The position numbers and the translations under genes were made by a program. The notes below the pieces were generated by a model that had not been told where the DNA came from, ran no database searches, and worked only from the letters and a program-made list of their open reading frames with translations. Shown here in pieces: positions 22,738-52,964 of a DNA stretch of 64,000 nucleotides. Positions within the stretch are counted from its first letter, which is position 1. Every line of letters begins with the position of its first letter. This DNA is from an uncultured Planctomycetia bacterium (lineage in GTDB: Bacteria; Omnitrophota; Gorgyraeia; 2-02-FULL-51-18): assembly GCA_964606485.1 (NCBI GenBank), contig CAZSGP010000003.1, forward strand, positions 130,481 through 194,480. The letters run 5' to 3'.

Positions 22738-22739
22738 TG

Positions 22740-23783: not shown

Positions 23784-24774
23784 AAAAATCATACGGATTG
23801 GATCGCGGGGAAGCTTGCTTGCGCTCGCGCAAAGTAAAAATATTTTAAAAATACTTCAAAAAAAGTTTAAACAGTACCGATTTAAACTGGTGATCATTAA
23901 AACAACCGGTGATGAATTTCAGAGCGTTGAGCTTTTTAAGACGGCGAATATTGGTGTTTTTACGAAAGAATTGGAAAAAAAGCTGCTGGCTAGACAGATT
24001 GATATTGCGGTGCATAGCCTAAAAGACTTGCCGACTAATCTAGCGCCAGGGCTCGTGCTTGGCGGCTACCCGAAGCGCGAAGATTCACGCGATGTGCTGG
24101 TCACGAAAAAAAATTATACGCTTAAAACCATTCCTGAAGGCGGCGTCGTGGGGACGGGGAGTTTGCGGCGGCAAAGGCAGATTAAACTCGTGCGGCCGGA
24201 TTTAAATGTGGTGGCGATTCGTGGGAATTTGAATACGCGGATTCTGAATGTGATCCGCGAAAATCAGTACCACGGGGTCGTGGTCGCGCGCGCGGGTCTC
24301 GTGCGGGTTAAAAAATATTTGAAATACGCATGGCCGATCCCGCCAAAAATTATGATGACGGCGGTAGCGCAGGCAGTGCTCGGAGTGCAGGTGCGCGCAG
24401 AGGATGAAGTCAGCTTAAAAATGGCGCAGAGCTTGAATCACAAGCCGACCGAACTTGCGGCGAGAATCGAGAGACACTTCTTAAACGCGCTCGAAGGCGG
24501 TTGCCGCGTGCCGGTAGGGGTCGAGACAAAGATTAGTGGAAAAAATATTTCGCTCAAGGCCGCGGTGTTTTCGGTGAAGACGAAGGCGGTGATTCGGGGG
24601 GAGATTAAGGGATCTGCTGAGAAATTGGAAGTGTTGGCTGAGACGCTAGCAAAGCAAATGCTTAAAAAAGGGGCGGACGGGTTTTTGAAGGAAGCTAGGG
24701 AAGGCGTTGCCACTCAAGAACACAGGTTCGGCAGGGAAGTGTGGGGAAAACCCATGGGGCGAGAAGTTTGGTGA
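23773..24774 (+). CDS. hemC: Porphobilinogen deaminase (hydroxymethylbilane synthase)
   Basis: 'IRIGSRGSLLALAQS' N-terminus. The annotated 3' end and stop lie inside a 33-bp direct repeat, so the C-terminal ~15 aa are repeat-encoded. Confidence 0.85.
   Translation: MAPKKIIRIGSRGSLLALAQSKNILKILQKKFKQYRFKLVIIKTTGDEFQSVELFKTANIGVFTKELEKKLLARQIDIAVHSLKDLPTNLAPGLVLGGYPKREDSRDVLVTKKNYTLKTIPEGGVVGTGSLRRQRQIKLVRPDLNVVAIRGNLNTRILNVIRENQYHGVVVARAGLVRVKKYLKYAWPIPPKIMMTAVAQAVLGVQVRAEDEVSLKMAQSLNHKPTELAARIERHFLNALEGGCRVPVGVETKISGKNISLKAAVFSVKTKAVIRGEIKGSAEKLEVLAETLAKQMLKKGADGFLKEAREGVATQEHRFGREVWGKPMGREVW
24742..24774. repeat. Direct repeat copy 1 (TGGGGAAAACCCATGGGGCGAGAAGTTTGGTGA) at the 3' end of hemC
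   Basis: Repeated at 26111..26142 with a single 1-nt indel. Confidence 0.9.
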
Positions 24775-24780
24775 TATCGA

Positions 24781-25503
24781 ATGTTGGGGATTGACCCAAT
24801 GAGAAGAGCGTTCCCATTTCTGCTTATCGGAATCGCTTATTGTTTGGTGCGCGGTTGGGTTTACTCGGTTTTGCCGGTTCGAACTTTTGAAGATTGGTTC
24901 TGGCGGGATACGTGGATGAATTTTCCGCGAATTGTCGGAGCTGTTTTGTGTTTATGGTTCGGCTTGAAGTTTTGGGGTCGAAAAAATTTCGGGTTTCACT
25001 CAAGCTCACTGCTTGCGGCACTAATTGCCGGGGCGATTTGTGTGGGGGATATTTTTTCGAGAACCCTCTACCCAATTCAGTGTAAGATTCTCCTGAATAT
25101 TGGACTTGTGATTTTTATAGGCAGTAGCCTGTGTGTGGCTTTATTTGAAGAGCTCCTTTTTCGGGGAGGGTTGCTACAATCACTTAAAGAGCGGCACGGG
25201 AATTTTATTGCGATTTGGATTTCGTCGTTTTTATTTACAATTTTTCATATTCAGGCCCAAGAGTTTCATGGTTGGCCATTTATTTTTATGAGCGGGCTCT
25301 TTTGGGCCGGATTAAGAATTTACCAAAGGGTTTCGCTGGTGTGGTTGATTGTTATTCATTGGGTGGTGGATGTGGTGTGGATTTTCAGACAGACTCCAGA
25401 ATATTTTATGGGGTACTCGCTCTATTCTTTGAGGGTTTTGGCGTGGGTCGTTGTTTTGGGGGCCTACTACTTGTGGGTGTGGAGGCGTAGGGCAATTTCA
25501 TGA
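24781..25503 (+). CDS. CPBP-family (CAAX protease/Abi) intramembrane metalloprotease
   Basis: Motifs 'EELLFRG' and 'FxxxH' ('FLFTIFHIQ') in a polytopic membrane protein. Confidence 0.75.
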   Translation: MLGIDPMRRAFPFLLIGIAYCLVRGWVYSVLPVRTFEDWFWRDTWMNFPRIVGAVLCLWFGLKFWGRKNFGFHSSSLLAALIAGAICVGDIFSRTLYPIQCKILLNIGLVIFIGSSLCVALFEELLFRGGLLQSLKERHGNFIAIWISSFLFTIFHIQAQEFHGWPFIFMSGLFWAGLRIYQRVSLVWLIVIHWVVDVVWIFRQTPEYFMGYSLYSLRVLAWVVVLGAYYLWVWRRRAIS

Positions 25504-25602
25504 TGCGAGCGAAGGTTTATTTGGTAGGGGCGCACCTTATTTTAGAGCAGGCGTTGAAATTATAACGTTATAATGTTATAATGTTACTCATGGAGAGCAG
25601 AC

Positions 25603-25827
25603 ATGACAAAAGCCACGACTGTTTATATTGATAACCGCCTTTTGCAGGCGGCGAAGCTTAAAGCGATTCAGGTGCATCAGAGCGTTTCGCATCTCATTAA
25701 CGATGCCTTGCGAATGGCTCTAAAAGAAGATGCGATGGATTTAGAAGCGATCCGTAAGCGTAAAAAGGAACCGACTATTTCGTTTGAAGCCGCACTCAAA
25801 GACCTAGAGAAGAATGGCCTCTTATAA
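25603..25827 (+). CDS. Type II antitoxin (RHH/ParD-like)
   Basis: 74 aa, directly upstream of and overlapping a RelE/ParE toxin gene. Confidence 0.6.
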   Translation: MTKATTVYIDNRLLQAAKLKAIQVHQSVSHLINDALRMALKEDAMDLEAIRKRKKEPTISFEAALKDLEKNGLL

Positions 25828-26074
25828 ACTGTCTCTAAAAGTTTCGGCGCAAAAAGAGCTTAAGAAAATTCATAAACCGCTTATCGCGCAGATCGTCAAA
25901 CGCATTCAGGCGTTGGCGGCTGATCCGCGTCCGCATAACTGCCAGATGCTTAATCAGGATGAGGGGTATTTCCGTGTGCGTCAGGGGGATTACCGGATTA
26001 TTTATGAAATTGATGATGAGGCGGGGCTCGTTGTGATTCTTAAAATCGGCCATCGCAGTGATGTTTATAAATAG
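25814..26074 (+). CDS. Type II toxin, RelE/ParE family
   Basis: 'YRIIYEIDDEAGLVVILKIGHRSDVY' C-terminus. Confidence 0.8.
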   Translation: MASYKLSLKVSAQKELKKIHKPLIAQIVKRIQALAADPRPHNCQMLNQDEGYFRVRQGDYRIIYEIDDEAGLVVILKIGHRSDVYK

Positions 26075-26110
26075 AAAATTGGGTCTAGTTTAAATGAAAT
26101 CAAAAGTTTA

Positions 26111-26142
26111 TGGGGAAACCCATGGGGCGAGAAGTTTGGTGA
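26111..26142. repeat. Direct repeat copy 2
   Basis: 32/33 identical to 24742..24774. This copy is intergenic. Confidence 0.9.
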
Positions 26143-26216
26143 GTATTCCTTTGACTGGTCTTGAAATAACCCTTCAATTATACTATAATACTACTATATT
26201 AAATTAGGGGGTTTGG

Positions 26217-26459
26217 ATGCACAACAAGGCACATATCAATATTACTTTGGATGCCGCGATTTTAAACTGGATTGACCGGTTACGCGGACAAAAGCCAAGA
26301 TCAACGTTTATTAATTCTATCTTGGATCAATTCTGCGAAAAAGAGCAGGCTGTTTTTGATTGGGCTCATGAAGGCAAGAAAGCGGATGAGGACATCCAAA
26401 AGGGCCGGGTTCATAAATTTACGGATTCCAAGAAAGCGGCTAAGTGGCTAAAGAGTTAG
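26217..26459 (+). CDS. Type II antitoxin (RHH/CopG-like)
   Basis: 'INITLDAAILNWIDRL' ribbon-helix-helix-like N-terminus. It overlaps the downstream toxin. Confidence 0.55.
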   Translation: MHNKAHINITLDAAILNWIDRLRGQKPRSTFINSILDQFCEKEQAVFDWAHEGKKADEDIQKGRVHKFTDSKKAAKWLKS

Positions 26460-26713
26460 TCTACACGGCAACTTTTAAGGAAAACTATCAGCGCCTGCCC
26501 AAAAAAATACAAGAAACCTTTGATCGGAAGCAGGAGTTGTTTCTGAAAGATCCAAAGCACCCCTCATTAAATATTCACCGATACCATGGGAAAGACGGCG
26601 TGTGGGAGGCTTATGTGAACGAAAAATACCGCTTCACTTTTGCGGTAACGGAAAACAGTCTTATTTTTCGTAATATCGGTTCTCATGGAATAATTGACAA
26701 GGGAAAGGTTTGA
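26444..26713 (+). CDS. Type II toxin, RelE/ParE (YafQ-like) family
   Basis: 'LPKKIQETF...DPKHPSLNIHRYHGKDGVWEAYVNEKYRFTF' matches the RelE/YafQ pattern. Confidence 0.65.
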   Translation: MAKELVYTATFKENYQRLPKKIQETFDRKQELFLKDPKHPSLNIHRYHGKDGVWEAYVNEKYRFTFAVTENSLIFRNIGSHGIIDKGKV

Positions 26714-26722
26714 AATAATCGC

Positions 26723-28252
26723 ATGAACAGCAAGGTCTATCTTGTCGGTGCAGGTCCCGGAGACCCGGGGCTTTTGACGCTCAAGGCGTGTCGGGCGCTG
26801 GAAGAAGCGGATCTTGTGATCTATGACTATCTCTCAAACACAGAGCATTTGAATCACTGTAAGAGCACCGTGCAAAAAGTGGCGGTGGGGAAAGGGTTCC
26901 GTCACAAGGCGATTTCCCAGCAAAAAATTAACCGTTTGATTGTGAGTGCGGCACAAAAAAATCAAACTGTGGTGCGGCTTAAGGGCGGAGACCCGTACTT
27001 GTTTGGCCGCGGCGGCGAAGAGGCGCTTTTTTTACACGAGCACAAAATTCCATTTGAAGTGGTGCCGGGCGTCACCAGTGCGACGGCTTGTGCGGCGTAC
27101 GCGGGGATTCCGCTCACACACCGCGACCACAACCAAAGTGTGACGTTTCTCACCGGACACCGGGCCGAAGACGGGCACCTGGACACGCTGCCGTGGAAAA
27201 AGATCGTAGAGATGGGCGGAACGCTTGCTATTTACATGGGGTTTTATAATTTAAAATCGATTGCCGAGAATTTGATTAAAAACGGAATGAACACGGATAT
27301 GCCTGTTGCCGTTGTGGAATGGGGAACGCTGCCGACGCAAAAAAGTGTGGTGGGAGCGCTTAAAAATATTGGGACGCTGGTTGAAAAAAAGAATTTGAAG
27401 CCGCCAGCGATGATTTTTATAGGCGAAGTGGTTGGTTTAAGCGCAAAACTCAACTGGTACGAGCGGCTGCCGCTCTTTGGTAAAAAAATTGTGATTACCC
27501 GCACCAAAGAACGCGCCGGTGCGATGACAGAAAAACTGAGAAACCTGGGTGCGGAGGTCGTGGAGTTTCCGGTGATTGAGATTGGAAAGCCCAAAAGTTT
27601 TACCGGGCTTGATGGGGCGCTCAGAGAAATTCAAAAATTTGATTGGGTGGTGTTTTCAAGCACGTATGGAGTCGAAAGTTTTTTTGAACGCCTTGCGGCG
27701 CAAAAAAAAGACGCACGGGCTTTGAGCGGCATAAAATTTGCCTGTGTGGGGCCGGGAACAGCAATGGCGCTTAAAAGTTTTGGAGTGAGCACGGATTTAC
27801 TGCCGGATCACTACGAGACGTCGGCGATTGTTGAAAAATTTAGAACGGCTAAAATAAATTTAAAAGAAAAAAGAGTGCTTTTGCCGCGGACGGACATTGC
27901 ACCCCCGGCGCTTCAAGTGGGGCTTAAAAAACTGGGAGCGCTTGTCACCCAGGTGACGGCGTACACGACGCGGACGCCAAAAATAATTTCGGCGGAATTT
28001 AAAAAAGAAATTTTAACAAATGGCGCCGACTTTGTGACGTTTACAAGCTCGTCGACGGTGGATAATTTTGTTAAGATCATGGGGCTTCGCGAGGTGAAAC
28101 GGCTTTCAAAAAAGGCGAAACTGGCGAGCATAGGCCCGGTGACAAGTGAAGCGATGCGGCGATACGGACTCAAACCCGCGGTAGAGGCAAAAATTTTTAC
28201 GGTAGAAGGACTAGTGAATGCGATAAAGAATTGTCATTCCCGCAAGTTTTAA
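26723..28252 (+). CDS. Bifunctional uroporphyrinogen-III C-methyltransferase / uroporphyrinogen-III synthase
   Basis: N-terminal 'VYLVGAGPGDPGLLTLKA' (CobA/CysG methyltransferase). The C-terminal ~250 aa are HemD-like. Confidence 0.8.
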   Translation: MNSKVYLVGAGPGDPGLLTLKACRALEEADLVIYDYLSNTEHLNHCKSTVQKVAVGKGFRHKAISQQKINRLIVSAAQKNQTVVRLKGGDPYLFGRGGEEALFLHEHKIPFEVVPGVTSATACAAYAGIPLTHRDHNQSVTFLTGHRAEDGHLDTLPWKKIVEMGGTLAIYMGFYNLKSIAENLIKNGMNTDMPVAVVEWGTLPTQKSVVGALKNIGTLVEKKNLKPPAMIFIGEVVGLSAKLNWYERLPLFGKKIVITRTKERAGAMTEKLRNLGAEVVEFPVIEIGKPKSFTGLDGALREIQKFDWVVFSSTYGVESFFERLAAQKKDARALSGIKFACVGPGTAMALKSFGVSTDLLPDHYETSAIVEKFRTAKINLKEKRVLLPRTDIAPPALQVGLKKLGALVTQVTAYTTRTPKIISAEFKKEILTNGADFVTFTSSSTVDNFVKIMGLREVKRLSKKAKLASIGPVTSEAMRRYGLKPAVEAKIFTVEGLVNAIKNCHSRKF

Positions 28253-28303
28253 GCGGGAATCAGGCTGATCCCCGATAAAAGATTTCGGGGATGACAGGAG
28301 AAG

Positions 28304-29281
28304 ATGAAACCTTTAAAAATCAGACCACGTCGTTTAAGAGAAAATCCACTCGTGCGGAGCTTTGTGTCGGAAAACTCCATTTTGGCAAAGGATTTGATTC
28401 AGCCGATTTTTATAAAAGAAGGGCTCACGAAGCCGGTTGAAATAGCGTCCATGCCGGGACAGTTTCAGCAAACGCTTGCGAGTGCGGTGACAGAAGCGAA
28501 GATTTTAGAGAAGCTTGGGGTGTCGGGCGTGATTTTATTTGGCATACCGACTAAAAAAGATTTGAACGGACGCGCGGCGTTTGCGGGAAATGGAATTACT
28601 CAAAAAGCGATAGCACAGATTAAAAAAGCGGCGCCAAAACTACTGGTGATTGCGGATGTTTGTTTATGTGAATACTTAAGCCATGGACACTGTGGAATTA
28701 TAAAAAATAAAAGCGTTCAAAACGACGAGACGCTGGACGTTTTGGCCAAGGTGGCGATCAGTTACGCGCGGGCGGGAGCGGACATTGTGGCGCCGTCGGA
28801 CATGATGGATGGACGCGTGGCGGCAATCCGTGAGGCGCTCGATAAAAATAATTTTAAAAATGTGCCGATTTTGTCGTATGCGGTGAAGTACGCTTCTAGT
28901 TTTTACGCGCCGTTTCGGGACGCGGCGGAGAGCGCGCCGGCATTTGGAGACCGCAAGAGCTACCAGATGAACCCGGCGAATATTCGAGAGGCTTTGAAAG
29001 AAGCGGCACTCGACGTAGCTGAGGGCGCGGACATGCTTTTGGTGAAACCGGCGCTGACGTACGGGGACATTCTTTCAAAATTGCAGGAAAAATATTCGAT
29101 CCCAGTGGGAGCCTATAGCGTGAGCGGAGAGTACGCAATGATCAAAGCGGCGGTGGTGATGGGATGGCTCGACGAGCAAAAAACGGTGCTAGAGACGCAT
29201 TTGTCGCTGAAGCGCGCGGGAGCGGATTTCATTGTGACGTACTGGGCAAAAGACATTGCAAAATGGGGAGTGGGGTTATGA
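28304..29281 (+). CDS. hemB: Porphobilinogen synthase (ALA dehydratase)
   Basis: 'RPRRLRENPLVRSFV' N-terminus and an active-site Lys region 'VKPAL'. Confidence 0.9.
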   Translation: MKPLKIRPRRLRENPLVRSFVSENSILAKDLIQPIFIKEGLTKPVEIASMPGQFQQTLASAVTEAKILEKLGVSGVILFGIPTKKDLNGRAAFAGNGITQKAIAQIKKAAPKLLVIADVCLCEYLSHGHCGIIKNKSVQNDETLDVLAKVAISYARAGADIVAPSDMMDGRVAAIREALDKNNFKNVPILSYAVKYASSFYAPFRDAAESAPAFGDRKSYQMNPANIREALKEAALDVAEGADMLLVKPALTYGDILSKLQEKYSIPVGAYSVSGEYAMIKAAVVMGWLDEQKTVLETHLSLKRAGADFIVTYWAKDIAKWGVGL

Positions 29282-30528
29282 GCCAGCAGTGGGTGGACGC
29301 GCAAAATCATTTGGCGGGTGGAGTCAATAGTCCAGTTCGCGCGTTTCGCGCGGTGGGTGGAGAGCCGGTGTTCATGAAAAGCGGCAAAGGGGCCGAGCTT
29401 ACAGACACGGCTGGAAAAAAATACGTCGACTACTGCATGTCGTGGGGCGCGCTTTACTTTGGCCACGCGGACCCAGTGACGGTGAAAGCGGTGCAAGCGC
29501 AGGCTAAGAAGGGTTTGAGTTTTGGCGCGTGCACGACGCTTGAAACGGAGCTCGCGACTGAAATTCAAAAAGTGTTTCCGAATATGGAGCGCATTCGTTT
29601 TACGAGTTCGGGTACGGAAGCGGTGATGAGTGCGATTCGTTTGGCGCGTGGATTCACCAAAAAAGAGCGGGTCGTGAAATTTGAGGGGTGCTACCACGGC
29701 CACGCAGACAGTTTGCTTGTGAAGGCGGGAAGCGGGCTTGCGACATTTGGAACTCCAGACTCGGGGGGAATTCCAAAGGAACTTGCGAAGCTCACGACGG
29801 TTTTGGAATACAACAACAGTGACGCTGTGCGAGCGCATTTTAGAAAATCAAAAGACACGGCGTGTGTGATTGTGGAGCCGGTTGCCGGAAACATGGGAGT
29901 GGTGCCGGGGAAAACAGAATTTTTAGAGACACTCAAAAAGGAATGCAAAAAGGCCGGGGCGCTTTTGATATTTGATGAAGTGATGAGCGGATTTCGGGTG
30001 GCGTACGGCGGGGCGCAACATTTGCACGGCATAACGCCGGATATGGTGGTTTTGGGGAAAGTGATTGGCGGGGGCTTGCCGGTGGGTGCGTTTGGCGCGC
30101 GGCGCGAAATCATGGAAAATTTGTCGCCGCTGGGTGCCGTGTACCAAGCGGGAACGCTGTCGGGGAACCCGCTTTCAATGGCGGCGGGACTCTCTGTGCT
30201 AAAACGTCTTTCCAAAAAAAATCACAATGATGCTGAGAAAAAACAAAAGACGCTGCTCGCGGGGGCGCAGGAAATATTTGCGCGGAAAAAAATAGAGGTT
30301 GTGATTCAGAGCGTGGGGCTCATGTTTACGGTATTTTTTAGAAGCGGTAAGGTTGAAAATTGGAACGACGTTTCGAGATCTGACAAAGAAGCTTTTAAGA
30401 AATATTTTAACCGGATGCTGGCCGCGGGAATTTACCTGCCGCCGTCGGCGTTTGAAGCGGCATTTTTTTCTCAAGCGCATGGGAAAAATGAAATTGAAAA
30501 AACATTGAAGGCGATCGAGCGATGCTAA
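29278..30528 (+). CDS. hemL: Glutamate-1-semialdehyde 2,1-aminomutase
   Basis: 'GGVNSPVRAF' and a PLP-Lys region 'LGKVIGGGLPVGAFG'. The start is taken at the ATG overlapping the hemB stop. Confidence 0.9.
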   Translation: MSQQWVDAQNHLAGGVNSPVRAFRAVGGEPVFMKSGKGAELTDTAGKKYVDYCMSWGALYFGHADPVTVKAVQAQAKKGLSFGACTTLETELATEIQKVFPNMERIRFTSSGTEAVMSAIRLARGFTKKERVVKFEGCYHGHADSLLVKAGSGLATFGTPDSGGIPKELAKLTTVLEYNNSDAVRAHFRKSKDTACVIVEPVAGNMGVVPGKTEFLETLKKECKKAGALLIFDEVMSGFRVAYGGAQHLHGITPDMVVLGKVIGGGLPVGAFGARREIMENLSPLGAVYQAGTLSGNPLSMAAGLSVLKRLSKKNHNDAEKKQKTLLAGAQEIFARKKIEVVIQSVGLMFTVFFRSGKVENWNDVSRSDKEAFKKYFNRMLAAGIYLPPSAFEAAFFSQAHGKNEIEKTLKAIERC

Positions 30529-33953: not shown

Positions 33954-34018
33954 TGTTTTTTTGACAAAAGCTGAAAAATCATTATAATTACCTCTTATAT
34001 CACCTTATGGAGTTTAAA

Positions 34019-37169: not shown

Positions 37170-37303
37170 ATTCTATTGCAGTAAAATATTTTTTTGATAT
37201 ACTGATCCGTAATGGCTCAACTCATTGAGATAAATGCAGCCCGCAATTCATCTCAATTCCCGCCGCAAGATACCACCAAACATTTTAAAACTTTTTTTCT
37301 GAG

Positions 37304-38131
37304 ATGCGCCTTATGAGCAAACTCATTGAAACGCTAAGAGCGAGCGCTCAAGAATTTACGAAGCGTCAAACCAAAGACTCAACTGTCTCCAACGCCCAAA
37401 AAACTCAGTACGAGTTAACACAAGAGCAGTTGGCCGATATCTATTTTTCTAATACTCAAAAAACTCAAAAATCAGAGATGCCGATGGTGATCAAGGTCAT
37501 TGAAAAGTCTAAACCGTCGGCTTCGATTGGTCCGTGGATTATCAGTTTGATCGCTATCATAATCACAGCGTTCAGTCTTTTTTCTTCGAAGCGCGTTTTT
37601 GTAGACATTAAGGTTATTGATGATCGCGCCATGTACGCGCCATCTAGTTACGATTCATCTATTTATGGGCGGGGAGATGTATCTCGATCTGCACCACGGA
37701 ACCTTAGTCCGGCAGATTTTTGGTTTGAGGGTGCCGCTCTATTAAAAAGTTCAAAATCCAAAGATCTTTTGACGCTATCCAATAGCTCCGTTGCTAGTTT
37801 TGCCAAAGCGGCAACATCGTTTGAGCCTCCGCTCAATCTCACGACCTCTAAGCTTTGTTTTATGGTGAAGGGTGTGAAGGGCCAAGAAAATATTGCAGTA
37901 GCCATGAAAGACCGAGAAAATCGCACGGCTTTCCCAAAAGGAAAATTTTACCCTTATCCAACCGGACTCACCAATGACTGGCAAAGAGTTGAAATTAGCT
38001 CCCAGGATTTTTTAAGCGAGTTTGATTCTAAGAATATTACAGGGCTGCGCTTTGAGTTTGGCACCAAGGAAATTGGCAATAAACCGGGCGACTCGATTTT
38101 AATCAAGGATCTTCATATCGAAACCCCATAA
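37304..38131 (+). CDS. Membrane-anchored hypothetical protein with a C-terminal beta-rich (possibly CBM-like) domain
   Basis: One transmembrane helix (~residues 75-95). The stop codon lies 2 nt before the ParA-like gene, so the two are probably co-transcribed. Confidence 0.45.
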   Translation: MRLMSKLIETLRASAQEFTKRQTKDSTVSNAQKTQYELTQEQLADIYFSNTQKTQKSEMPMVIKVIEKSKPSASIGPWIISLIAIIITAFSLFSSKRVFVDIKVIDDRAMYAPSSYDSSIYGRGDVSRSAPRNLSPADFWFEGAALLKSSKSKDLLTLSNSSVASFAKAATSFEPPLNLTTSKLCFMVKGVKGQENIAVAMKDRENRTAFPKGKFYPYPTGLTNDWQRVEISSQDFLSEFDSKNITGLRFEFGTKEIGNKPGDSILIKDLHIETP

Positions 38132-38133
38132 AA

Positions 38134-39213
38134 ATGCATATTATCGCAATTTCCAATCAAAAAGGGGGGTGCGGTAAAACGACAGCCGCGATAAACATCG
38201 CGGCGAGCCTCGCGTCTCTTGGCAAAAAAACTCTTCTTGTCGATCTAGATCCTCAAGCCCACGCAACTTTCGGAGTGGGCATTCGTACCGAAAACCTAGA
38301 AGGTTCTATATACAACGTTCTTACGCTTCAAGAGGAGCGCCGGAAACCTTTCCTAGAAGATGTGATCATGCCCATTGAAGATAATTTAGACATAGCGCCC
38401 TCACACGTGCTTCTAACGACGATCGAGCAAGAGTTTACAAATAGAGATGAGTCGGTTTCTCGGCTTCACGAGGTTTTTTTAGGACTTTCGTTTCCTTATG
38501 ACTACGTCGTTATTGACTGCCCGCCTAGCCTTGGATTTTTAACGTTCAACGCGCTTCGTGCAGCTCGTACGGTGATTGTGCCGGTAGAGCTTGGTTCATT
38601 CTCATTGATGGGCGTCACTAAATTACTTAGTATGGCCGAGCTATTGCGAGTAAAACTATCTCACACGCCCCGAATTTTTGCACTTCCATCCCTTGTGGAT
38701 ATGAGAACGCGTTTTGCTAAGCATATGCTCAGCGAAATTCGATCCGCATTCGGAGAAAATGTTTTTGATAGCACCATTCGCCAAACTATTTCAGTCAAAG
38801 AATCTCAGGCGAAGGGCGTGTCTCTGTTTCGATATGACCGAAAATCAAAGGGAGCTCTTGATTTTCTGCTTTTAGCGCAAGAGATTCTAGGCAAGACAGG
38901 CGGCAAAATAGATGAATCAACCGCGCTCGCAAACCCAGAATCGCTTCCCTCGCAACGCTTAAAAGATTTTATTGTGAAGGTTCAGGGTGCGCGTGAAGTG
39001 CACATTGTTGGAGATTTTAACAACTGGAGAATGTCCGATCAGTCTTTGTTGTGGCAAAAAGAAGAGGGGCTCTGGCAAAAAAGAGTGTTCTTGGAACCGG
39101 GAAAATATCGGTACAAATTTATTATTGACGGTCAATGGACCACTGATCCTTCGAATGACTTTCTAGAGTCCAACCCTTACGGGGGCGTCGATTCCGTTCT
39201 TGAAATCCAGTAA
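38134..39213 (+). CDS. ParA/MinD-family ATPase fused to a C-terminal CBM48/AMPK-beta glycogen-binding module
   Basis: Deviant Walker A 'NQKGGCGKTTAAINIA'. The C-terminus 'VHIVGDFNNWRMSD...GKYRYKFIIDGQWTTDPSN' closely matches the AMPK1_CBM/CBM48 signature (GSFNNW...G.Y.YKF.VDGQW..DP). Confidence 0.8.
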   Translation: MHIIAISNQKGGCGKTTAAINIAASLASLGKKTLLVDLDPQAHATFGVGIRTENLEGSIYNVLTLQEERRKPFLEDVIMPIEDNLDIAPSHVLLTTIEQEFTNRDESVSRLHEVFLGLSFPYDYVVIDCPPSLGFLTFNALRAARTVIVPVELGSFSLMGVTKLLSMAELLRVKLSHTPRIFALPSLVDMRTRFAKHMLSEIRSAFGENVFDSTIRQTISVKESQAKGVSLFRYDRKSKGALDFLLLAQEILGKTGGKIDESTALANPESLPSQRLKDFIVKVQGAREVHIVGDFNNWRMSDQSLLWQKEEGLWQKRVFLEPGKYRYKFIIDGQWTTDPSNDFLESNPYGGVDSVLEIQ

Positions 39214-39742
39214 ACTACCGTACAAGATTGTTGAATCCAGCACGCATTACAACGGGCACATCATCCAGCTTCGGAAAGACCGTTTCACCTTAAACGCCGT
39301 TCCCGGAAAGATTGTGACGCGCGAACTCGTGGTCCACCCTGGGGCGGTTGTGATTTTGCCGTTTATAGATAAAAACAAAATTGTTCTAATTAGGCAATTC
39401 CGCTATGCCGCAAAAGGGGATTTGTGGGAAATTCCGGCGGGGACTTTGGAGGCAGGCGAGAACCCGCTCGTTTGCGCGAAGCGTGAACTCGAAGAAGAGA
39501 TTGGTTTTAAAGCTAAAAAATTTAAGCTTCTGACACGCTTTTTCTCTGCCCCCGGAATTAGCGATGAGGTGATGACTCTTTACTCTGCCCACCAACTTTA
39601 CCCGGGACTTAAAAACCTGGATCACGACGAATGGATAGAGCACCGTATTACACCCCTTAAAGATGCGCTTCGAATGATTCGCACCGGTCAGATCAAAGAC
39701 GCAAAAACCATCATAGGAATTCTTTGGGTTTCCCAATTTTAA
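39200..39742 (+). CDS. NUDIX hydrolase (ADP-ribose pyrophosphatase-like)
   Basis: Nudix box 'GTLEAGENPLVCAKRELEEEIGF'. TTG start. Confidence 0.8.
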   Translation: MKSSKLPYKIVESSTHYNGHIIQLRKDRFTLNAVPGKIVTRELVVHPGAVVILPFIDKNKIVLIRQFRYAAKGDLWEIPAGTLEAGENPLVCAKRELEEEIGFKAKKFKLLTRFFSAPGISDEVMTLYSAHQLYPGLKNLDHDEWIEHRITPLKDALRMIRTGQIKDAKTIIGILWVSQF

Positions 39743-46064: not shown

Positions 46065-46916
46065 ATGGAAACGCCCACATCTAAACGCAAACTTTTTTTT
46101 GGACTGTTCATATTTCCGCTGCTCATTGCAGTTGGGATGGCAATCCTTCTGTGTTCCGTTGTGCTTCTAACACACGAAGAACAAACCCCCGAAACCCTTG
46201 TGAGCGCCATTAAAACGGGCTCTGCCTCCAAGCGCTGGCAAAAAGCCTTTGAACTTTCGAACGAACTCAATCGCTCCAAAGATACACTTCGAAACGAAAG
46301 CCTATTAAAAGAAATGATCTCAATTCTCAAGGATTCTGAGCGGTACGATTCTAAAACTCGCGGATACATGGCACTTGCGATTGGTCGCTTTCAAAATGAA
46401 ACGGCTGAGCAGGCTCTGGCGGACGCGCTAGGAAGCTCTGATGAGGATGTTCAGGTTTATGCGCTTTGGTCTTTGGGTGGGATGTCCGCTAAAAACTCAG
46501 CCCCTCAGGTTGCGGAACTTTTAAAGAGTGATAGCGCGGAACTTAGAAAAATTTCAGCCTATGTCTTGGGTGCAATTGGGGACAAAAAATACTCGGTTGA
46601 TTTACGTAAATTATTAAATGACCCATCCACCGAAGTTCGGTGGAACGCCGCTCTGGGCTTAGCTCGACTAGGGGATAAGACCAGTCTGGACACTCTCTCG
46701 CAAATGGTGAAGCGCGAAACTTATTCACAGGAACTTTTGATGGACGAAGAAAATATTGAAACGGTGATGATCAATGCGGTCAAAGGACTTTCCTTGATCG
46801 CAACAACGGATTCTGGAAAAATTCTTGAAGATTTATCTAAAAATGATAAAAGTCTAAAAGTCCGCCAAGCGGCACTGGATGCGCTACGGCTATATAAGGA
46901 AGGCTTAGTTCGATGA
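46065..46916 (+). CDS. Membrane-anchored HEAT/PBS-lyase-like repeat protein
   Basis: N-terminal transmembrane helix. Repeated 'VR..A..ALG.IGD' HEAT-like units. Confidence 0.6.
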   Translation: METPTSKRKLFFGLFIFPLLIAVGMAILLCSVVLLTHEEQTPETLVSAIKTGSASKRWQKAFELSNELNRSKDTLRNESLLKEMISILKDSERYDSKTRGYMALAIGRFQNETAEQALADALGSSDEDVQVYALWSLGGMSAKNSAPQVAELLKSDSAELRKISAYVLGAIGDKKYSVDLRKLLNDPSTEVRWNAALGLARLGDKTSLDTLSQMVKRETYSQELLMDEENIETVMINAVKGLSLIATTDSGKILEDLSKNDKSLKVRQAALDALRLYKEGLVR

Positions 46917-47452
46917 GCGAAACACCTACACCCGTCCAGGCGACAACCCAGAACCCTTCAAACCCCACGATGAATCGGCGGAAATTTATTTCCTGGTTTG
47001 GTGTGGCATGGGTAAGTTTTGCTGCGGCAACAACCGGAGCTCTTTCGATCGTGCTTCGCTACTTATTTCCAAACGTTGTTTTTGAGCCACCCACCAGTTT
47101 CAAGGCTGGGTTTCCAGCGGATTATGAAGTCGGTGTTGTGGATGAGCGCTGGAAAGAAAAATATGGCGTCTGGATGATGAGAACAGCGGAGGGGATATAC
47201 GCGCTGTCGACCATCTGCACGCATTTAGGCTGCACACCCAATTGGCTCGCCACCGAAAATAAATTCAAATGCCCTTGCCATGGCAGCGGCTTTTATAAAA
47301 CCGGTATTAATTTTGAAGGGCCCGCACCACGACCGCTCGAACGCTACCGCATCTCGCTCGCCGATGACGGACAAATTTTAATTGATAAGTCAAAAAAATT
47401 TCAGCAGGAAAAAGGCGAGTGGAATAATCCGGAATCGTTTTTAAACTGCTAA
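46913..47452 (+). CDS. Rieske [2Fe-2S] subunit of a cytochrome bc/b6f-type complex, Tat-exported
   Basis: Twin-arginine motif 'NRRKFIS'. Rieske boxes 'CTHLGC' and 'CPCHGS'. Confidence 0.9.
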
Positions 47453-47462
47453 AGGAAAAATA

Positions 47463-48266
47463 ATGGCCGACGCGACACCTCCTAAACCTAAATTTGATCT
47501 CGGAAAATACATCACCGAGACTCAGCTCTACAAATCGATGTTCCGCCATGGGTACACGACAAGCGACCGCGACCGAGCGCTTTCGGTAATGACAAACGTG
47601 TTTTTTCATTTGCATCCAGTCAAGGTGCGCAAGTCTGGGGCGCGTCTCGGGTTTACGTGGTGCGCGGGCGGATTGTCATTTTTTGTATTCTTGACTCTTG
47701 TTGTGAGCGGAATTCTTTTGATGTTTTACTACCGCCCAACCGTTGAACATGCTTACAACGACATCATGGCCCTCCGCGAACACGTTCCGTTTGGAATTAT
47801 GCGTGAGCTGCACCGCTGGGGAGCACACGCGATGATTATCACAGTTTGGCTCCACATGTTTCGTGTGTTCATGACCGGCTCTTATAAGCCGCCCAGGGAA
47901 TTCAACTGGGTGATCGGTGTTATTCTTTTGGTATTGACCATGCTTCTTAGCTTCACCGGATACTTGCTTCCCTGGGACCAGCTCGCGATGTGGGCAATCA
48001 CAGTGGGTAGTAATATGGCTCGCGCCACTCCATTTTTAGGTCACGAAGGTCCAGGGGCGGCACTGCTTGCCATTGGAGACATTCAGCTCGTGCATGCAGG
48101 GAGTGACGTTCGTTTCGCGCTTCTTGGGGGTCGTTTTGTTGGGGCGGGGACCTTGCTTCGGTTCTACATTCTTCACTGTGTTGCCATTCCAACCCTTGTA
48201 GTTGTTTTGATGTCGGTTCACTTCTGGCGCATCCGTAAAGATGGGGGAATCAGCGGACCCTTATAA
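47463..48266 (+). CDS. Cytochrome b (b6-like N-terminal half)
   Basis: '[20 protein letters not shown]' and '[13 protein letters not shown]' with the bis-His heme ligands. Confidence 0.9.
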
Positions 48267-48267
48267 T

Positions 48268-49347
48268 ATGGAAGCCTTCAAAGTACTCCTCAACTCAATA
48301 GCGTCGCCCACCACTATTTTTACAGCGGCTTTGTTTATTTTTGGTCTCTTCGTTTCGTTTCCGCGCTTTTTCTCATCGAAGCCAGCGGGCTTCGTCATGC
48401 TTGCTGTGGTGGCTGGTTTTCTGGGATTCGGACTAACGGATAAGCATTTCCGCTCCATCATTAGCACGCCCGATAACGTTCCGATTGTCGGCATGATTTT
48501 TATTTTTGGATTTTTCACGTGGTACGCCATGCACAAGGCGACTGCGAACGATGCTCGCATTGAAAAAGGTGAGCCCACCTGGGAAGCAACTGAAACAAAC
48601 GACAAGGTGCTGGTGTTTCCGTATCTAATTTTCATCGAATTTGTCATGGCCTTAGCGTATGCGCTTGTGCTCGTTGTCTGGTCTATCTATTTGAAGGCGC
48701 CGCTCGAGGAACCCGCGAATCCGACCGTGTCACCAAACCCCAGCAAAGCTCCTTGGTATTTCTTGGGTCTTCAGGAAATGCTTGTCTATTTTGATCCGTG
48801 GATCGCGGGCGTGCTTTTGCCGACGCTCATCATCATCGGTCTTTGCGCGATTCCGTATATCGACCGCGATACGTCTACTTCAGGATTTTTTTCATTTAAA
48901 AAGAGAAAAGGTGTGATCACGACCTATCTTTTCGGATTCTGGCTTCTCTGGATTTTGCTCGTTATCATGGGAACATTTTTACGCGGACCAAACTGGAATT
49001 TCTTCGGTCCTTTTGAAGTTTGGGATGTACGAAAAGTGGTCCCGCTTTTAAACGTGAACCTTTCTGAAATTATTTTCATCAAGATGTTGGGGGTTGGGTT
49101 GCCAAAACTCTGGTTTATTCGTGAAGCGCCGGGCATTTTGCTGGTGCTCGCATATTTGGTTTTACCGCCAGCAATCCTCGCCAAAACAATTTTTAAAGAG
49201 CATTACAAAAAAATGGGGCCTGAGCGATACGCTCTCATGGTATTTTTGTTTCTCATGATGTTGGCACTTCCCATTAAAATGTATTTGCGCTGGGGTTTTA
49301 ATTTAAAATACATCGTCGCCATCCCTGAATTCTTTTTTAACATCTAA
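48268..49347 (+). CDS. Cytochrome b C-terminal half (subunit IV-like) with extra transmembrane helices
   Basis: 'PWYFLGLQEMLVYFDPWIAGVLLP' corresponds to the PEWY region. Length 359 aa. Confidence 0.8.
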   Translation: MEAFKVLLNSIASPTTIFTAALFIFGLFVSFPRFFSSKPAGFVMLAVVAGFLGFGLTDKHFRSIISTPDNVPIVGMIFIFGFFTWYAMHKATANDARIEKGEPTWEATETNDKVLVFPYLIFIEFVMALAYALVLVVWSIYLKAPLEEPANPTVSPNPSKAPWYFLGLQEMLVYFDPWIAGVLLPTLIIIGLCAIPYIDRDTSTSGFFSFKKRKGVITTYLFGFWLLWILLVIMGTFLRGPNWNFFGPFEVWDVRKVVPLLNVNLSEIIFIKMLGVGLPKLWFIREAPGILLVLAYLVLPPAILAKTIFKEHYKKMGPERYALMVFLFLMMLALPIKMYLRWGFNLKYIVAIPEFFFNI

Positions 49348-49348
49348 T

Positions 49349-52135
49349 ATGCCTCCCAAACCAAACCCAACGCTGTACAGCATCCCCAAAACCTTTATGT
49401 GGTTTGCAATCGTCAGCATTCTCTTGACCGGCAGCCTTGTGGCGATTATATGGCTCGACTACTCAAGGGAGTGGAAAACATACCAAAAAGCCTTTATCGA
49501 ATTAAAAATTAAAAATGCGCAGAGCGAGCTAAAGGCGGCTTCATCAAAAATCGACAAAAAGAAGCTGGCTGATTTGGAAGCTGTTAAAAATGCAACTGAA
49601 GAGGCTCTTAAGATCCACCGGACTGAAATGGCTACTTTGCAAAAGGAGATAGGCTCTCTTTCAACAACGCTGATTAAAAAGAAAAATGCGTATCAAGACT
49701 TGAAGCAGTTCCAAGATTCGTATCGCTATTTCTTTGAAGATTACACCGAACACAAAGATCCGAAAGCCAAGGAATACGAAAAGAAGTTGGCGGAAGTGAG
49801 CCCGAAGGTGGTTGCGGCCAAAATTGCTTTTGATGAAGCCGAAAAAGCAAAGGCGGACAAAGAGTCAGCGCTAAATGAATACTTGGCCAAAGAAAAAGCT
49901 GCGCAAAAAGACCTCGATAAAATTCTGGATGAACAAACTCGGACTCAAAAGAAAATAAGTAAACTAATGCCAAGCCTTGCAAAGGCTGCCTTAAACGCCC
50001 CAATGCTTGATTTTGTGGCGCCTACTTATAAAGTTCAACAAATTGTTCTCGACAATCTTTACGACGACTACCATTTCGCGAAAACTCAAAAAGTTGACCG
50101 TTGCACCACGTGCCACCTGGGAATCGATCAAAAAGGTTACGAAGATGCACCTCAACCTTTCAAAACACATCCAAACCTAGACCTTTACTTGGGGTCATCT
50201 TCTCCGCATCAAATTGAAAAAGTGGGTTGCACAAGTTGCCACGGCGGCAACGGTCATTCCGTTTCGTTTAAAGACTCAGCCCATATGCCCCAGAGCGCCG
50301 AGCAGGCTGAGCAGTGGCATAAGAAATATAATTGGGAGATGCTTGAAAAATGGGACAACAAGATGCTTCCCATGAACTACGTGCAAGCGTCATGCGCCAA
50401 ATGCCATCAGCAAACCACCGATGTGCCGAAAGCTAATAAATTGAACGAGGGTAGAGCTCTCGCAAACCGCTATGGCTGTATCAATTGCCACAAGATTTCG
50501 GGCTATGAAAATCGTTGGAAAGTTGGCCCGAGCCTTGAAAGCATCTCTTCCAAACTTGATAAGGACTGGATCGTGAAATGGACTCACAACCCGCAACATT
50601 TCCGTGAGTCCACAAAAATGCCCCGGATTTTTAATCTTGGCAATACCTCAAACCCTGAAGATCTGGCTAAAAATGCCGCTGCGATTGAGAGTATTGCGGT
50701 ATATCTTCTCAAACATTCAAGCCCTGTAACTTTAGCTGCGCCCCCCTCTAAGGGCAACGCAGAAAGCGGTGAGAAGCTCATTAAGGAACGTGGTTGCTTG
50801 GGCTGTCACAGCTTGTCAAATGTGCAAGCGGATCATCATGCGCCAGAACTTTCTGGACTTGGCAGCAAAGTAAAACCCGAATGGCTTTATTCTTGGGTTA
50901 AGAATCCGAAGCACTTTTCACCAAGCACTCGCATGCCCAATCTTCGTCTGACTGACAGCGAGGCGGCGGATATCACGGCCTATTTATTAAGCCAGAGAAA
51001 CGAAAAATTTGAGTCGGAGAAGGCGCCGCAAGCGGACCCCGCTGTGCGAGATGCTCTTATTTTAGAAGGCCTGCTCGGCACGCTCACTAGAGATCAGGCC
51101 CAAGAAAAAATAAATTCCCTCAAAGAGGATGAAAAGTGGGAATTTTTAGGCAAAAAAACGATTAGCCAACAAGGCTGTTACTCTTGCCATCAAATCAAAG
51201 GATTTGAAGACGCTAAAGCGATTGGCGCTGAGCTCACCAAAGAAGGGCGTAAAGACTTGCATCAGTTTGATTTTGGTTTTATCGATATTGAGCACACACG
51301 GCATGACTGGATTACCCAGAAGCTAAAAGAACCTCGGATTTTTGATCACGGAAAAGTTAAGGCTTACTACGAAAAGCTTCGCATGCCACAGTTTAATTTA
51401 ACGCCCGCTGAAATTGAGTCTATTACGACATTTGTTTTGAGCTTGACCGATGAGCAGATTCCTTACGAGATGCAAAAGCGGCTTTCGCCTAATGAAGCCA
51501 AGGTCGAAAAGGGAAGATTGCTCGTCCAAAAATTAAATTGTGCCGGCTGCCATGCTCTTGACGGAAAACCCGGAACATTAAGAGAGATTATGGAAGATAA
51601 GGGCCAGGCGCCTCCTGTTTTGGATGGTGAGGGAGCAAAGGTTCAGGAGAAATGGCTTCATGAATTTTTGAAAGCCCCATATCCCGTGCGCCCATGGCTT
51701 CAAATTCATATGCCTACATTTGATTTGAGCGAGGATGAGGTAAAGTCTATCGTCGAGTATTTCACCTACATGGCGCATCAGGAAATTTCATACAACGGCC
51801 TCGACCTCCCGGAAACATCGAAGGAGAAATTAGAGGGCGGAAAAGTGTTGTTTGAAAAATTCCAGTGCACGAAGTGTCACCAGGTCAACGCCGAAGCCCT
51901 GGCCATGGGAACTTCCTTCTTGGCGCCGGATCTCACGCTCACCAAACACCGCCTGAAGCCCGAATGGGTGCGGCAGTGGCTCGTTGACCCTCAAATGGTG
52001 CAAGAGGGGACTATGATGCCCACCTTCTTCGCAGACGGGACAACGCCAGTAGAGGACATTTTGAGCGGCGATGCCAACAAGCAGATCGAAGCCATTCGTG
52101 ATTACCTCTACACCTACGAAACCCAAAAGTCTTAG
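49349..52135 (+). CDS. Membrane-anchored octaheme cytochrome c with an N-terminal coiled coil
   Basis: Eight CxxCH motifs: CTTCH, CTSCH, CAKCH, CINCH, CLGCH, CYSCH, CAGCH, CTKCH. N-terminal transmembrane helix and a ~170-aa coiled coil. Confidence 0.85.
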   Translation: MPPKPNPTLYSIPKTFMWFAIVSILLTGSLVAIIWLDYSREWKTYQKAFIELKIKNAQSELKAASSKIDKKKLADLEAVKNATEEALKIHRTEMATLQKEIGSLSTTLIKKKNAYQDLKQFQDSYRYFFEDYTEHKDPKAKEYEKKLAEVSPKVVAAKIAFDEAEKAKADKESALNEYLAKEKAAQKDLDKILDEQTRTQKKISKLMPSLAKAALNAPMLDFVAPTYKVQQIVLDNLYDDYHFAKTQKVDRCTTCHLGIDQKGYEDAPQPFKTHPNLDLYLGSSSPHQIEKVGCTSCHGGNGHSVSFKDSAHMPQSAEQAEQWHKKYNWEMLEKWDNKMLPMNYVQASCAKCHQQTTDVPKANKLNEGRALANRYGCINCHKISGYENRWKVGPSLESISSKLDKDWIVKWTHNPQHFRESTKMPRIFNLGNTSNPEDLAKNAAAIESIAVYLLKHSSPVTLAAPPSKGNAESGEKLIKERGCLGCHSLSNVQADHHAPELSGLGSKVKPEWLYSWVKNPKHFSPSTRMPNLRLTDSEAADITAYLLSQRNEKFESEKAPQADPAVRDALILEGLLGTLTRDQAQEKINSLKEDEKWEFLGKKTISQQGCYSCHQIKGFEDAKAIGAELTKEGRKDLHQFDFGFIDIEHTRHDWITQKLKEPRIFDHGKVKAYYEKLRMPQFNLTPAEIESITTFVLSLTDEQIPYEMQKRLSPNEAKVEKGRLLVQKLNCAGCHALDGKPGTLREIMEDKGQAPPVLDGEGAKVQEKWLHEFLKAPYPVRPWLQIHMPTFDLSEDEVKSIVEYFTYMAHQEISYNGLDLPETSKEKLEGGKVLFEKFQCTKCHQVNAEALAMGTSFLAPDLTLTKHRLKPEWVRQWLVDPQMVQEGTMMPTFFADGTTPVEDILSGDANKQIEAIRDYLYTYETQKS

Positions 52136-52244
52136 TTTTTATACCGCTTGCTAATTTAAGCTAAGAAAATTAAAATACTTCTGTTTCTGTTTGAGTCTAT
52201 TTTTTATCAATTTTAGAACATCTTTTACAAAGGGAGATAGAGCC

Positions 52245-52949: not shown

Positions 52950-52964
52950 ACCTTCTTTAAAATA

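Follow-up and report, generated by a model that had tools for sequence, protein, structure and literature searches.

The window analyzed in this study is a 64-kb stretch of contig CAZSGP010000003.1 from an uncultured member of the Omnitrophota, and the piece considered here (positions 37304-39213, forward strand) contains two closely spaced genes. The downstream gene encodes a ParA-type ATPase fused, via a linker, to a C-terminal carbohydrate-binding module (CBM) of family CBM48, and the upstream gene encodes a membrane protein, referred to as UP (Table 1). Both open reading frames (ORFs) were located as in a preliminary description that had been made from the sequence alone, including the end of UP two nucleotides before the fusion: the junction reads ...ccaTAAaaATGcat, with the UP stop codon at 38129-38131, a 2-nt gap (TAA-aa-ATG), and the ATG of the fusion gene at 38134. 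The strings GDFNNW and GKYRYKFIIDGQWTTDPSN, which that description had quoted for the glycogen-binding module, were also found in the translation. Because the homologues of UP begin with MSK, translation probably starts not at position 37304, but at the ATG at 37313, yielding 272 residues. The ParA-CBM48 fusion is real and no artifact, and, judged from its sequence, it represents an uncharacterized, widespread ParA/MinD subfamily with a built-in, putatively glucan-binding module.

The N-terminus of the fusion opens straight into the deviant Walker A motif (MHIIAISNQKGGCGKTT), and residues 1-229 matched the Pfam families AAA_31 (166.6 bits) and CbiA (68 bits). The best sequence match within the PDB was the chromosomal ParA protein from Myxococcus xanthus (8RAY, E=4.9e-49), with the Soj proteins of Helicobacter pylori and Thermus thermophilus coming next. 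In the AlphaFold2 (AF2) model, for which a mean predicted local distance difference test (pLDDT) score of 80.8 was obtained, the ATPase superposed on the structures of these three proteins (8RAY; 6IUB; 1WCV/2BEK) with target template modeling (TM) scores of 0.84-0.90 at 35-38% identity. The KGGxGK[ST] motif with its signature lysine, the Walker A' and B aspartates, and the fold thus all place the protein in the ParA/MinD superfamily. Residues K10, G11, G12, G14, K15, T16, D37, D39, and D128 were invariant across 216 aligned fusions; these include the key positions of Walker A, A', and B, and the ATPase should, therefore, be active. Two further positions are characteristic of the clade, namely Cys13 within Walker A (210 of the 216 fusions) and His43 in the motif DPQxH (212 of the 216), which are Val and Asn, respectively, in the three canonical ParA/Soj proteins aligned. 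The NCBIfam models for ParA, RepA, MinD, and BcsQ all matched below threshold, so that the fusion belongs to no named equivalog. Two specific identities were rejected. The first was a BY-kinase (Wzc/CapB type, or one with a split, CapA/CapB-like membrane activator), as TIGR01007 reached 33 bits against a cutoff of 108 and the C-terminus is a CBM48 with no Tyr cluster; the second was BcsQ, as TIGR03371 reached 58 bits against a cutoff of 157.85, the identity in structure alignments was 16-18%, and no bcs genes occur nearby.

Table 1. Coordinates of the gene pair, its domains and motifs, and the following gene within the 64-kb window.
Feature	Position	Strand	Basis or remark
UP gene (275-aa ORF)	37304..38131	+	Bitopic membrane protein; conserved partner gene of the fusion
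UP cytoplasmic N-terminal tail	37313..37447	+	Two conserved motifs, 61 homologues
UP transmembrane helix, residues 75-93, IGPWIISLIAIIITAFSLF	37526..37582	+	Hydropathy scan; AF2 helix 72-90 (272-aa form)
UP C-terminal beta-jelly-roll, CBM-like	37700..38128	+	AF2 and Foldseek; predicted extracytoplasmic
ParA-CBM48 fusion gene	38134..39213	+	359-aa product
Soj-type ParA ATPase domain, residues 1-255	38134..38898	+	AAA_31 166.6 bits; 8RAY best PDB match
Deviant Walker A KGGCGKT, residues 10-16	38161..38181	+	Cys13 is a clade signature
Disordered linker, approximately residues 256-275 (~20 aa)	38899..38958	+	AF2 pLDDT <50 at residues 258-274
AMPK-beta-type CBM48 module, residues 276-359	38959..39210	+	AMPK1_CBM and CBM_48 above cutoff
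NUDIX hydrolase gene, NDP-sugar/ADP-compound hydrolase group	39200..39742	+	Pfam NUDIX 65.7 bits

Given the matches to 8RAY, 1WCV, and 6IUB, the fusion could be the chromosome-partitioning ParA (Soj) of the organism, carrying an accessory C-terminal domain and working with a ParB encoded elsewhere; relatives of the protein are indeed named 'chromosome partitioning protein' by JGI. However, parB was detected neither in the window nor in the related loci L002 and L003 or the scanned neighbors of L032 and L020, a ParB domain being absent from all neighbors examined, and no ParB family was among the 25 most frequent neighbor families of the 36 loci in which the fusion occurs without UP. The fusion further differs from chromosomal ParA/Soj by Cys13 and His43, by the added linker and CBM48, and by the loop between helices alpha8 and alpha9, which contacts DNA and ATP and reads IRQTISVK in the window instead of IP(K/R)(S/N)V(K/R)L. 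Moreover, the fusion is present in phyla whose cultured members possess a canonical ParABS system, for example, the Myxococcota (M. xanthus, PMC12462528). A role as the regular chromosomal ParA is, therefore, regarded as improbable.

The replaced loop also bears on the question of nucleoid binding. The DNA-binding patch of H. pylori Soj was defined experimentally as K199, K227, K230, and K247 (PMC6393308), and R238 was defined as a DNA-contact residue of M. xanthus ParA (PMC12462528). This patch maps onto K196, Q217, S220, and K237 of the window fusion, meaning that two of the four residues are kept and both central ones are lost. Family-wide, Lys or Arg occupies positions 193, 196, 220, and 222 in 142-193 of the 216 fusions, with 174 for position 220 and 193 for position 222, a family-specific basic position represented by K222 in the window. 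Nucleoid binding thus appears plausible for the family, but uncertain for the window's clade because of the replaced central residues of the DNA motif.

The C-terminal module passed the Pfam cutoffs of both families against which it was to be judged, AMPK1_CBM (PF16561; 48.9 bits versus a cutoff of 26.8, residues 284-358) and CBM_48 (PF02922; 23.6 versus 22.4 bits), in agreement with the fused ParA and AMPK-beta/CBM48 architecture originally proposed. The C-terminal 95 residues of the protein matched the CBM of AMPK beta1 in the PDB (1Z0N, E=3.8e-10) and that of AMPK beta2 (E ~4e-10), followed by the CBM48 modules of GH13 pullulanase and of the SEX4/LSF glucan phosphatases. From residue 281 onwards, the module was modeled with pLDDT values of 81-91 (mostly 85-91). 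W298, K328, W335, and D353 of the window protein align with W100, K126, W133, and N150, the glucan-contacting (cyclodextrin/glycogen) residues of AMPK beta1. Within 221 non-identical fusions from several phyla, Trp was found at position 298 in 213, Lys or Arg at position 328 in 208, Trp at position 335 in 209, and Asn or Asp at position 353 in 200 sequences; furthermore, position 350 was Gly in 213 and position 349 aromatic in 162 of them. Retention of the ligand residues in more than 90% of the fusions indicates selection on sugar binding beyond the fold alone. Mainly because these contact residues are conserved, and not merely the fold, the module is predicted still to bind alpha-glucan, that is, glycogen. 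Compared to the AMPK beta CBM (1Z0N, 1Z0M, 2F15), which it resembles over approximately 85 residues (E ~4e-10) with the W/K/W positions in common, the module differs in that L146 is replaced by Tyr/Phe and N150 by Asp in the window fusion (Asn in 142 of the 221), and in that it is attached through a disordered linker to a P-loop ATPase instead of being part of a kinase heterotrimer.

To determine the extent of the family, one genome per GTDB species was scanned, and at least 571 confirmed stretches encoding relatives of the fusion were recovered. The best 80 of these share 34-68% identity with the window protein and are nearly all full-length (one ends at residue 341); their lineage labels include Omnitrophota, Planctomycetota (Phycisphaerae, Sedimentisphaerales, Pirellulales, and Tepidisphaerales), Myxococcota, Desulfobacterota, Auribacterota, Eisenbacteria, UASB14, and others. 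The family is thus large, very well conserved, and distributed over at least eight phylum-level groups. A protein identical to the window fusion was found on a 399-kb NCBI contig and in a Logan assembly of run SRR12487046. In database searches, the best 120 matches of the window fusion were all full-length fusions of 355-373 residues with 63-72% identity, and those named by organism were nearly all metagenome-assembled genomes (MAGs) of Candidatus Omnitrophota; the window is, therefore, taken as part of the chromosome of an Omnitrophota bacterium. When 1.84 billion cluster representatives were searched exhaustively with HMMER, the top ~150 likewise consisted almost exclusively of fusions. The CBM was present in 139 of 149 representatives of the clade (50% identity clusters), and the remaining ten look truncated or frameshifted; no other C-terminal module was found on the same ATPase clade among these 149 representatives, a result that bears on a modular design. 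The ATPase clade defined by Cys13 and His43 and the CBM are, thus, essentially inseparable. A search seeded with a Planctomycetota member retrieved fusions only (67-96% identity), annotated as 'AAA family ATPase', 'chromosome partitioning protein', or 'hypothetical protein', and no cultured carrier was among its top 120 matches, all of which were MAG or metagenome proteins. Three long proteins with many CBM48-matching stretches were encountered separately and are no ParA fusions: P0121 (WP_305767917.1, Candidatus Epulopiscium viviparus), a hypothetical protein of 1812 residues with 18 such stretches, and P0165 and P0193, which resemble it, with approximately 1400 residues and seven stretches each.

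Between ATPase and CBM, the fusions carry a low-complexity spacer, rich in Ala, Glu, Pro, and Ser, whose length across the family is 2-357 residues. Fusions of the window's clade have 16-26 residues there and those of Planctomycetota 61-143, whereas the maximum of 357 is reached among the Nitrospirota-/Leptospirillia-type fusions; the number of CBMs per fusion is exactly one throughout. A linker so variable in length and so simple in composition, combined with a single CBM, is more readily reconciled with a flexible tether than with an allosteric domain in a docked position. Several long-linker fusions (P0139, P0176, P0234, P0238, and P0250) contain a helix-like conserved segment, LSRPAELVQRAKQLAQLANLQFGR, just after the ATPase, which is not present in the short-linker fusions of the Omnitrophota.

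These features also bear on a reading in which glycogen is a signal and not a cargo. In such a glycogen-sensing regulator, the CBM48 would report the state of the store, as in AMPK, and tune a ParA ATPase that positions the chromosome, the division site, or an envelope complex containing UP. The CBM is of the AMPK-beta type and not of the type found as the N-domain of GlgB/GlgX (48.9 bits for AMPK1_CBM versus 23.6 for CBM_48), the ATPase is closest to chromosomal ParA, the conservation (63-72% in the window's clade, 67-96% among the Planctomycetota matches) is as strong as would be expected for a core cell-cycle factor, and most loci are without a nearby alpha-glucan gene. A disordered linker of 2-357 residues, however, speaks against the fixed inter-domain interface of AMPK allostery, and, outside the Omnitrophota, conserved genes for a second cargo or an adaptor are missing. 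Taken together, a sensor is considered unlikely.

The partner protein UP was correctly anticipated as a single-pass membrane protein with a beta-rich C-terminal domain: a hydropathy scan revealed one hydrophobic segment, and AF2 predicted a beta-sandwich with pLDDT values of 95-98. Its 66 detectable homologues are all 'hypothetical' or unnamed. Two motifs are conserved within the first ~70 residues, one right at the start, MSK(I/L)(I/L)E.L(K/R), and the other, ELTQEQLADIYF, at residues 37-48, and the residues M1, S2, E6, L8, Q37, L40, and Y44 are invariant or nearly so in 61 homologues. Beyond the transmembrane helix, a variable spacer is followed by a conserved domain of ~140 residues. In Foldseek comparisons, this domain matched jelly-roll CBMs of the PDB with a probability of 1.00 each, namely CBM30 (1WMX, E=3e-7), CBM4-2 (1K42), CBM11 (1V0A), CBM22, and CBM16, the first, 1K42, and 1V0A having E-values of ~3e-7 to 1e-6 and target TM-scores being ~0.5. 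Unlike these modules, with which it shares 10-16% identity, UP has an N-terminal membrane anchor and no attached glycoside hydrolase, and the Pfam family CBM30 (PF21582) scored 20.2 bits, below its cutoff of 27, a sub-threshold match that agrees with the Foldseek result; a weak precomputed match to PF21582 is present in some homologues. Ligand binding by UP is putative.

Short forms of UP (~190 residues) occur in distant loci, where the identity of the fusion to the window protein declines to ~38-45%. Their cytoplasmic part consists only of MDKKDIYEHLAKIYLDASS followed by a Lys-rich run, and the core common to long and short forms is (I/L)Y..LA.(I/T)Y plus a Lys-rich stretch. In the short homologues, the N-terminal flank of the membrane segment contains on average 6.1 Lys and Arg residues versus 2.3 on the C-terminal side; because of this bias, the N-terminus lies most likely inside and the C-terminus outside the cytoplasm, which would make the jelly-roll periplasmic and leave only the short N-terminal tail to reach the ATPase. 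In this tail, a short helix combines a hydrophobic face with basic residues, a loose fit to the ParA-binding motif at the N-terminus of ParB (PMC12462528), and the tail offers a lead as a ParA-contact peptide and candidate stimulator of ATP hydrolysis.

By means of an iterated hidden Markov model, 47 loci were identified in which UP lies directly 5' of the fusion and on its strand, 44 of them within the 80 genome loci and all of these of the Omnitrophota type. The distance between the two genes ranges from -80 to +157 nt, being below 40 nt in most cases, and the pairing persists down to ~38% identity of the ParA protein. The suggestion that UP could be the cognate adaptor is supported insofar as it is a conserved partner (44 of 80 loci); it does not hold for a classical cytoplasmic glycogen adaptor, because the beta-rich domain is most likely located outside the cytoplasm.

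The genomic context of the pair differs between Omnitrophota groups. In a larger and more distant group, the order is outer-membrane barrel, GH57, UP, ParA-CBM48, a gene for a protein with three transmembrane segments, and a poly-Lys gene of ~140 codons. The barrel, of the Alginate_exp type (113 bits), was found 5' of the pair in 25 Omnitrophota loci, either adjoining UP or separated from it by GH57, and the GH57 gene (~520 residues, 213 bits) directly 5' of UP in 23. The GH57 product has no predicted transmembrane segment or signal sequence and is closest to the GH57 amylopullulanase of Aquifex (E=2e-83), an enzyme that hydrolyzes glycogen, pullulan, and starch. Barrel and GH57 are absent from the window's clade. 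The survey for alpha-glucan genes beside the fusion that had been proposed in the preliminary description, thus, gave a divided result: GH57 is linked to the pair in 23 Omnitrophota loci, and none such gene recurs in the window's clade or in the 36 loci without UP. Contexts of the Mrp/ApbC or flagellar kind, named beforehand as pointing away from polysaccharide, were not encountered among the loci examined.

Several small genes were observed 3' of the fusion. The protein with three transmembrane segments (105-112 residues, conserved HAKQGLV) follows it directly in 21 Omnitrophota loci, e.g., L037:7134-7460, and its gene often overlaps the stop codon of the fusion. The Lys-rich protein, termed p146 (~120-150 residues), was found in 31 Omnitrophota loci, e.g., L032:7125-7562 and L033:7160-7564; it combines KKKxKKK repeats in the N-terminal tail with a C-terminal domain of ~80 residues (G.ITHYFP...GD.I.IKGHTTDF.Q...SMQID...AKKGQEIGLLV), and, with a tail of this composition, it may bind a polyanion, for example, DNA. 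Neither product matched a Pfam or NCBIfam family. In five loci of the Planctomycetota type (L047, L070, L071, L072, and L082), the gene directly 3' of the fusion encodes a beta-sandwich protein of ~200-240 residues with a proprotein-convertase P-domain, three of them with a weak PEP-CTERM match, of which one exceeds the Pfam cutoff; this protein may be a membrane-anchored extracytoplasmic beta-sandwich and, as such, an analogue of UP. ORFs of ~305-312 residues occupy the same position in L018:7128-8042, L027:7129-8058, and L064:3339-4274, with a CbiA match of 33 bits in L064, a weak one in L018 (E=0.0016), and no family match in L027. Within the window, an outer-membrane barrel of the Alginate_exp type (37 bits) is represented at 63500-64000 on the minus strand by its C-terminal part, as the window ends within the gene; its family is that of the barrel accompanying UP and ParA-CBM48 elsewhere in the Omnitrophota, but here it lies ~25 kb away on the opposite strand.

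The linkage to barrel and GH57 admits a BcsQ-like reading, according to which the ATPase, UP, the AlgE-like outer-membrane barrel, and GH57 would together span the envelope and take up or export alpha-glucan, with the ATPase localizing or gating the complex. BcsQ (6YAY, 6YB5) is a ParA/MinD-fold ATPase tied to polysaccharide biology with membrane and outer-membrane components, and its structures were among the fold matches of the fusion (target TM-scores ~0.8). The barrel in 25 loci, the membrane anchor and CBM-like ectodomain of UP, and the P-domain beta-sandwich genes of the five Planctomycetota-type loci, with weak PEP-CTERM matches in three, are in line with such an organizer. Its conserved operon members, however, comprise no glycosyltransferase or synthase, no ABC or MFS transporter, and no BcsR- or BcsE-like gene, and BcsA is likewise missing from the neighborhood. 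Identity to BcsQ is 16-18% only, the fusion possesses the canonical KGGxGKT motif, CBM48 is generally known as a binder of storage glucan in the cytoplasm in characterized contexts, and the window's clade lacks barrel and GH57. This explanation, accordingly, seems unlikely to apply.

The reading that we tentatively prefer, as possible though somewhat short of probable, is that the fusion acts as an ATP-switched tether organizing glycogen. The CBM48 on its flexible linker would be the ATPase's own device for recognizing its cargo, an alpha-1,4/1,6-glucan, i.e., intracellular glycogen. Binding of ATP would lead to an ATPase dimer that docks on a matrix, which could be the nucleoid, contacted through what is retained of the basic patch, and/or UP with its cytoplasmic tail. 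The two CBMs of the dimer would then hold glycogen particles, and ATP hydrolysis would free the tether, possibly stimulated by UP, whose conserved N-terminal helix and Lys-rich tail would then act like the N-terminal peptide of ParB. The outcome would be an ATP-dependent anchoring or distribution of glycogen, which would be inherited by both daughters or placed beside glucan-processing enzymes, and in the Omnitrophota, UP could provide a connection from this module in the cytoplasm to the envelope or to a glycan outside the cell.

A comparable logic is known from the McdA-McdB system, in which an ATPase positions carboxysomes with the help of a separate adaptor. McdA (6NON/6NOP) is likewise an orphan ParA-type ATPase without a link to parB (target TM-scores ~0.8), and ATP-dependent matrix binding combined with cargo tethering would plausibly be common to both. 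In contrast to McdA-McdB, cargo recognition in the fusion appears to be achieved by the covalently attached CBM and not delegated to an adaptor, the signature lysine is present, and the protein encoded by the linked gene, UP, sits in the membrane and has a predicted extracytoplasmic domain. Omnitrophota MAGs have been reported to encode glycogen synthesis (PMC8542988), and the presence of a glycogen ligand is, therefore, expected in this phylum.

Several observations weigh against a glycogen tether. Neither glg nor GH57 genes occur near the pair in the window's clade or anywhere in the 64-kb window. Mixed neighbors with no recurrent alpha-glucan gene surround the fusion in the 36 loci that lack UP, which are labeled Myxococcota, Desulfobacterota, Planctomycetota, and others. 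In the window fusion, IRQTISVK replaces the canonical P-(K/R)-(S/N)-V-(K/R)-L, with Q217 and S220 in the two central positions. The contact between UP and the ATPase is deduced from gene adjacency and motif resemblance, no UP homologue accompanies the fusion outside the Omnitrophota, and the folded domain of UP is predicted to be periplasmic, making its link to a cytoplasmic granule indirect. Furthermore, Omnitrophota are reportedly very small cells, for which active positioning of granules seems less necessary.

ParA/MinD ATPases are a general bacterial means of placing large cytoplasmic objects such as chromosomes, plasmids, carboxysomes, and chemoreceptor arrays, and glycogen is among the commonest bacterial storage polymers. 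To our knowledge, no dedicated system for positioning glycogen is known, and a literature search combining ParA with glycogen, CBM48, or AMPK1_CBM retrieved neither a ParA-CBM48 protein nor a ParA-type glycogen system, in accordance with the novelty assumed in the preliminary description. In its widest form, the proposal would see a widespread organizer of glycogen granules in which the ATPase takes its cargo directly through the tethered CBM48, without an adaptor, and partitions or anchors the polysaccharide on nucleoid or membrane, being wired in the Omnitrophota through UP to a periplasmic glycan-binding domain; this version is rather doubtful. If it were true, glycogen would be added to the cargos of ParA, a different design would be represented, with the cargo module fused to the motor by a very variable linker, and, in the Omnitrophota, the carbon stores of the cytoplasm would be connected in space with the capture of glycans at the envelope. 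Since cargo module and motor are fused, the system would also be simple to reconstitute in vitro. A functional assignment would correct many generic annotations ('AAA family ATPase', 'chromosome partitioning protein') and would provide a way into the cell biology of groups that are mostly uncultured, among them the Omnitrophota and the anaerobic Planctomycetota.

With respect to the immediate surroundings, the gene order in the window's clade is tilS, (rpsU, DUF1844), rmuC, (PC4-like), UP, ParA-CBM48, NUDIX, (M48), SNase, and BFN. The start of the NUDIX ORF overlaps the stop codon of the fusion by 14 nt, and because of this overlap, the NUDIX gene is probably co-transcribed with it. The same gene lies directly 3' of the fusion in L002, L003, L006-L008, and L061. 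Its product matched NudE (78 bits) and YffH/AdpP (67 bits) of NCBIfam below cutoff, and whether it is a functional member of the module is uncertain. A PC4-like gene (PF02229) of 79 codons overlaps the start of UP in six close relatives (L002:6919-7158, L003:6916-7155, L007, L008, L009, and L061); it is absent from the window, where the 134-nt gap 5' of UP (37170-37303) contains no detectable remnant. Scans for promoters and terminators around the operon performed no better than shuffled controls. The 64-kb window contains no glg, parB, or min genes, and its gene content includes housekeeping and respiratory genes.

The neighboring RmuC, NUDIX, SNase, BFN nuclease, and UvrD-like helicase genes might also be taken for an anti-phage defense island, and PADLOC indeed returned domain-level matches for the helicase (GajB/RTasHel), SNase (C3a212), and RmuC (RTasRmuC). 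These matches are, however, generic; that of the fusion is confined to a P-loop of 35 residues (23.8 bits), and UP has none. Neither GajA nor a reverse transcriptase is present, the gene order is kept among divergent Omnitrophota beside the housekeeping genes tilS and rpsU, and the fusion occurs in many unrelated contexts. A defense island is, on these grounds, effectively refuted and has next to no probability.

Further observations concern the remainder of the window. The base composition jumps at approximately position 34000: between 8 and 34 kb, the GC content is ~0.47-0.53 and the GC skew +0.11 to +0.25, and from 34 kb on, these values are ~0.45 and ~0-0.07, respectively, the genes on either side of the shift lying on the plus strand. 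In an independent Logan assembly, no contig spans this point, and one contig begins at ~33917. At ~25600-26075 (coordinates converted from L004), a gene pair for an RH3-domain protein and a ParE-family toxin is located between an Rce1-like gene and the genes for haem biosynthesis. The haem cluster extends from 22737 to 30528 and encodes GlutR, PBG deaminase, uroporphyrinogen methyltransferase/HEM4, ALAD, and GSA aminotransferase, and a respiratory cluster (46913-54661) comprises a Rieske protein, cytochrome b, a protein of 928 residues with only weak or faint matches to cytochrome c families, CtaA, and UbiA/CtaB. Together, the two clusters suggest a respiratory lifestyle for this Omnitrophota genome.

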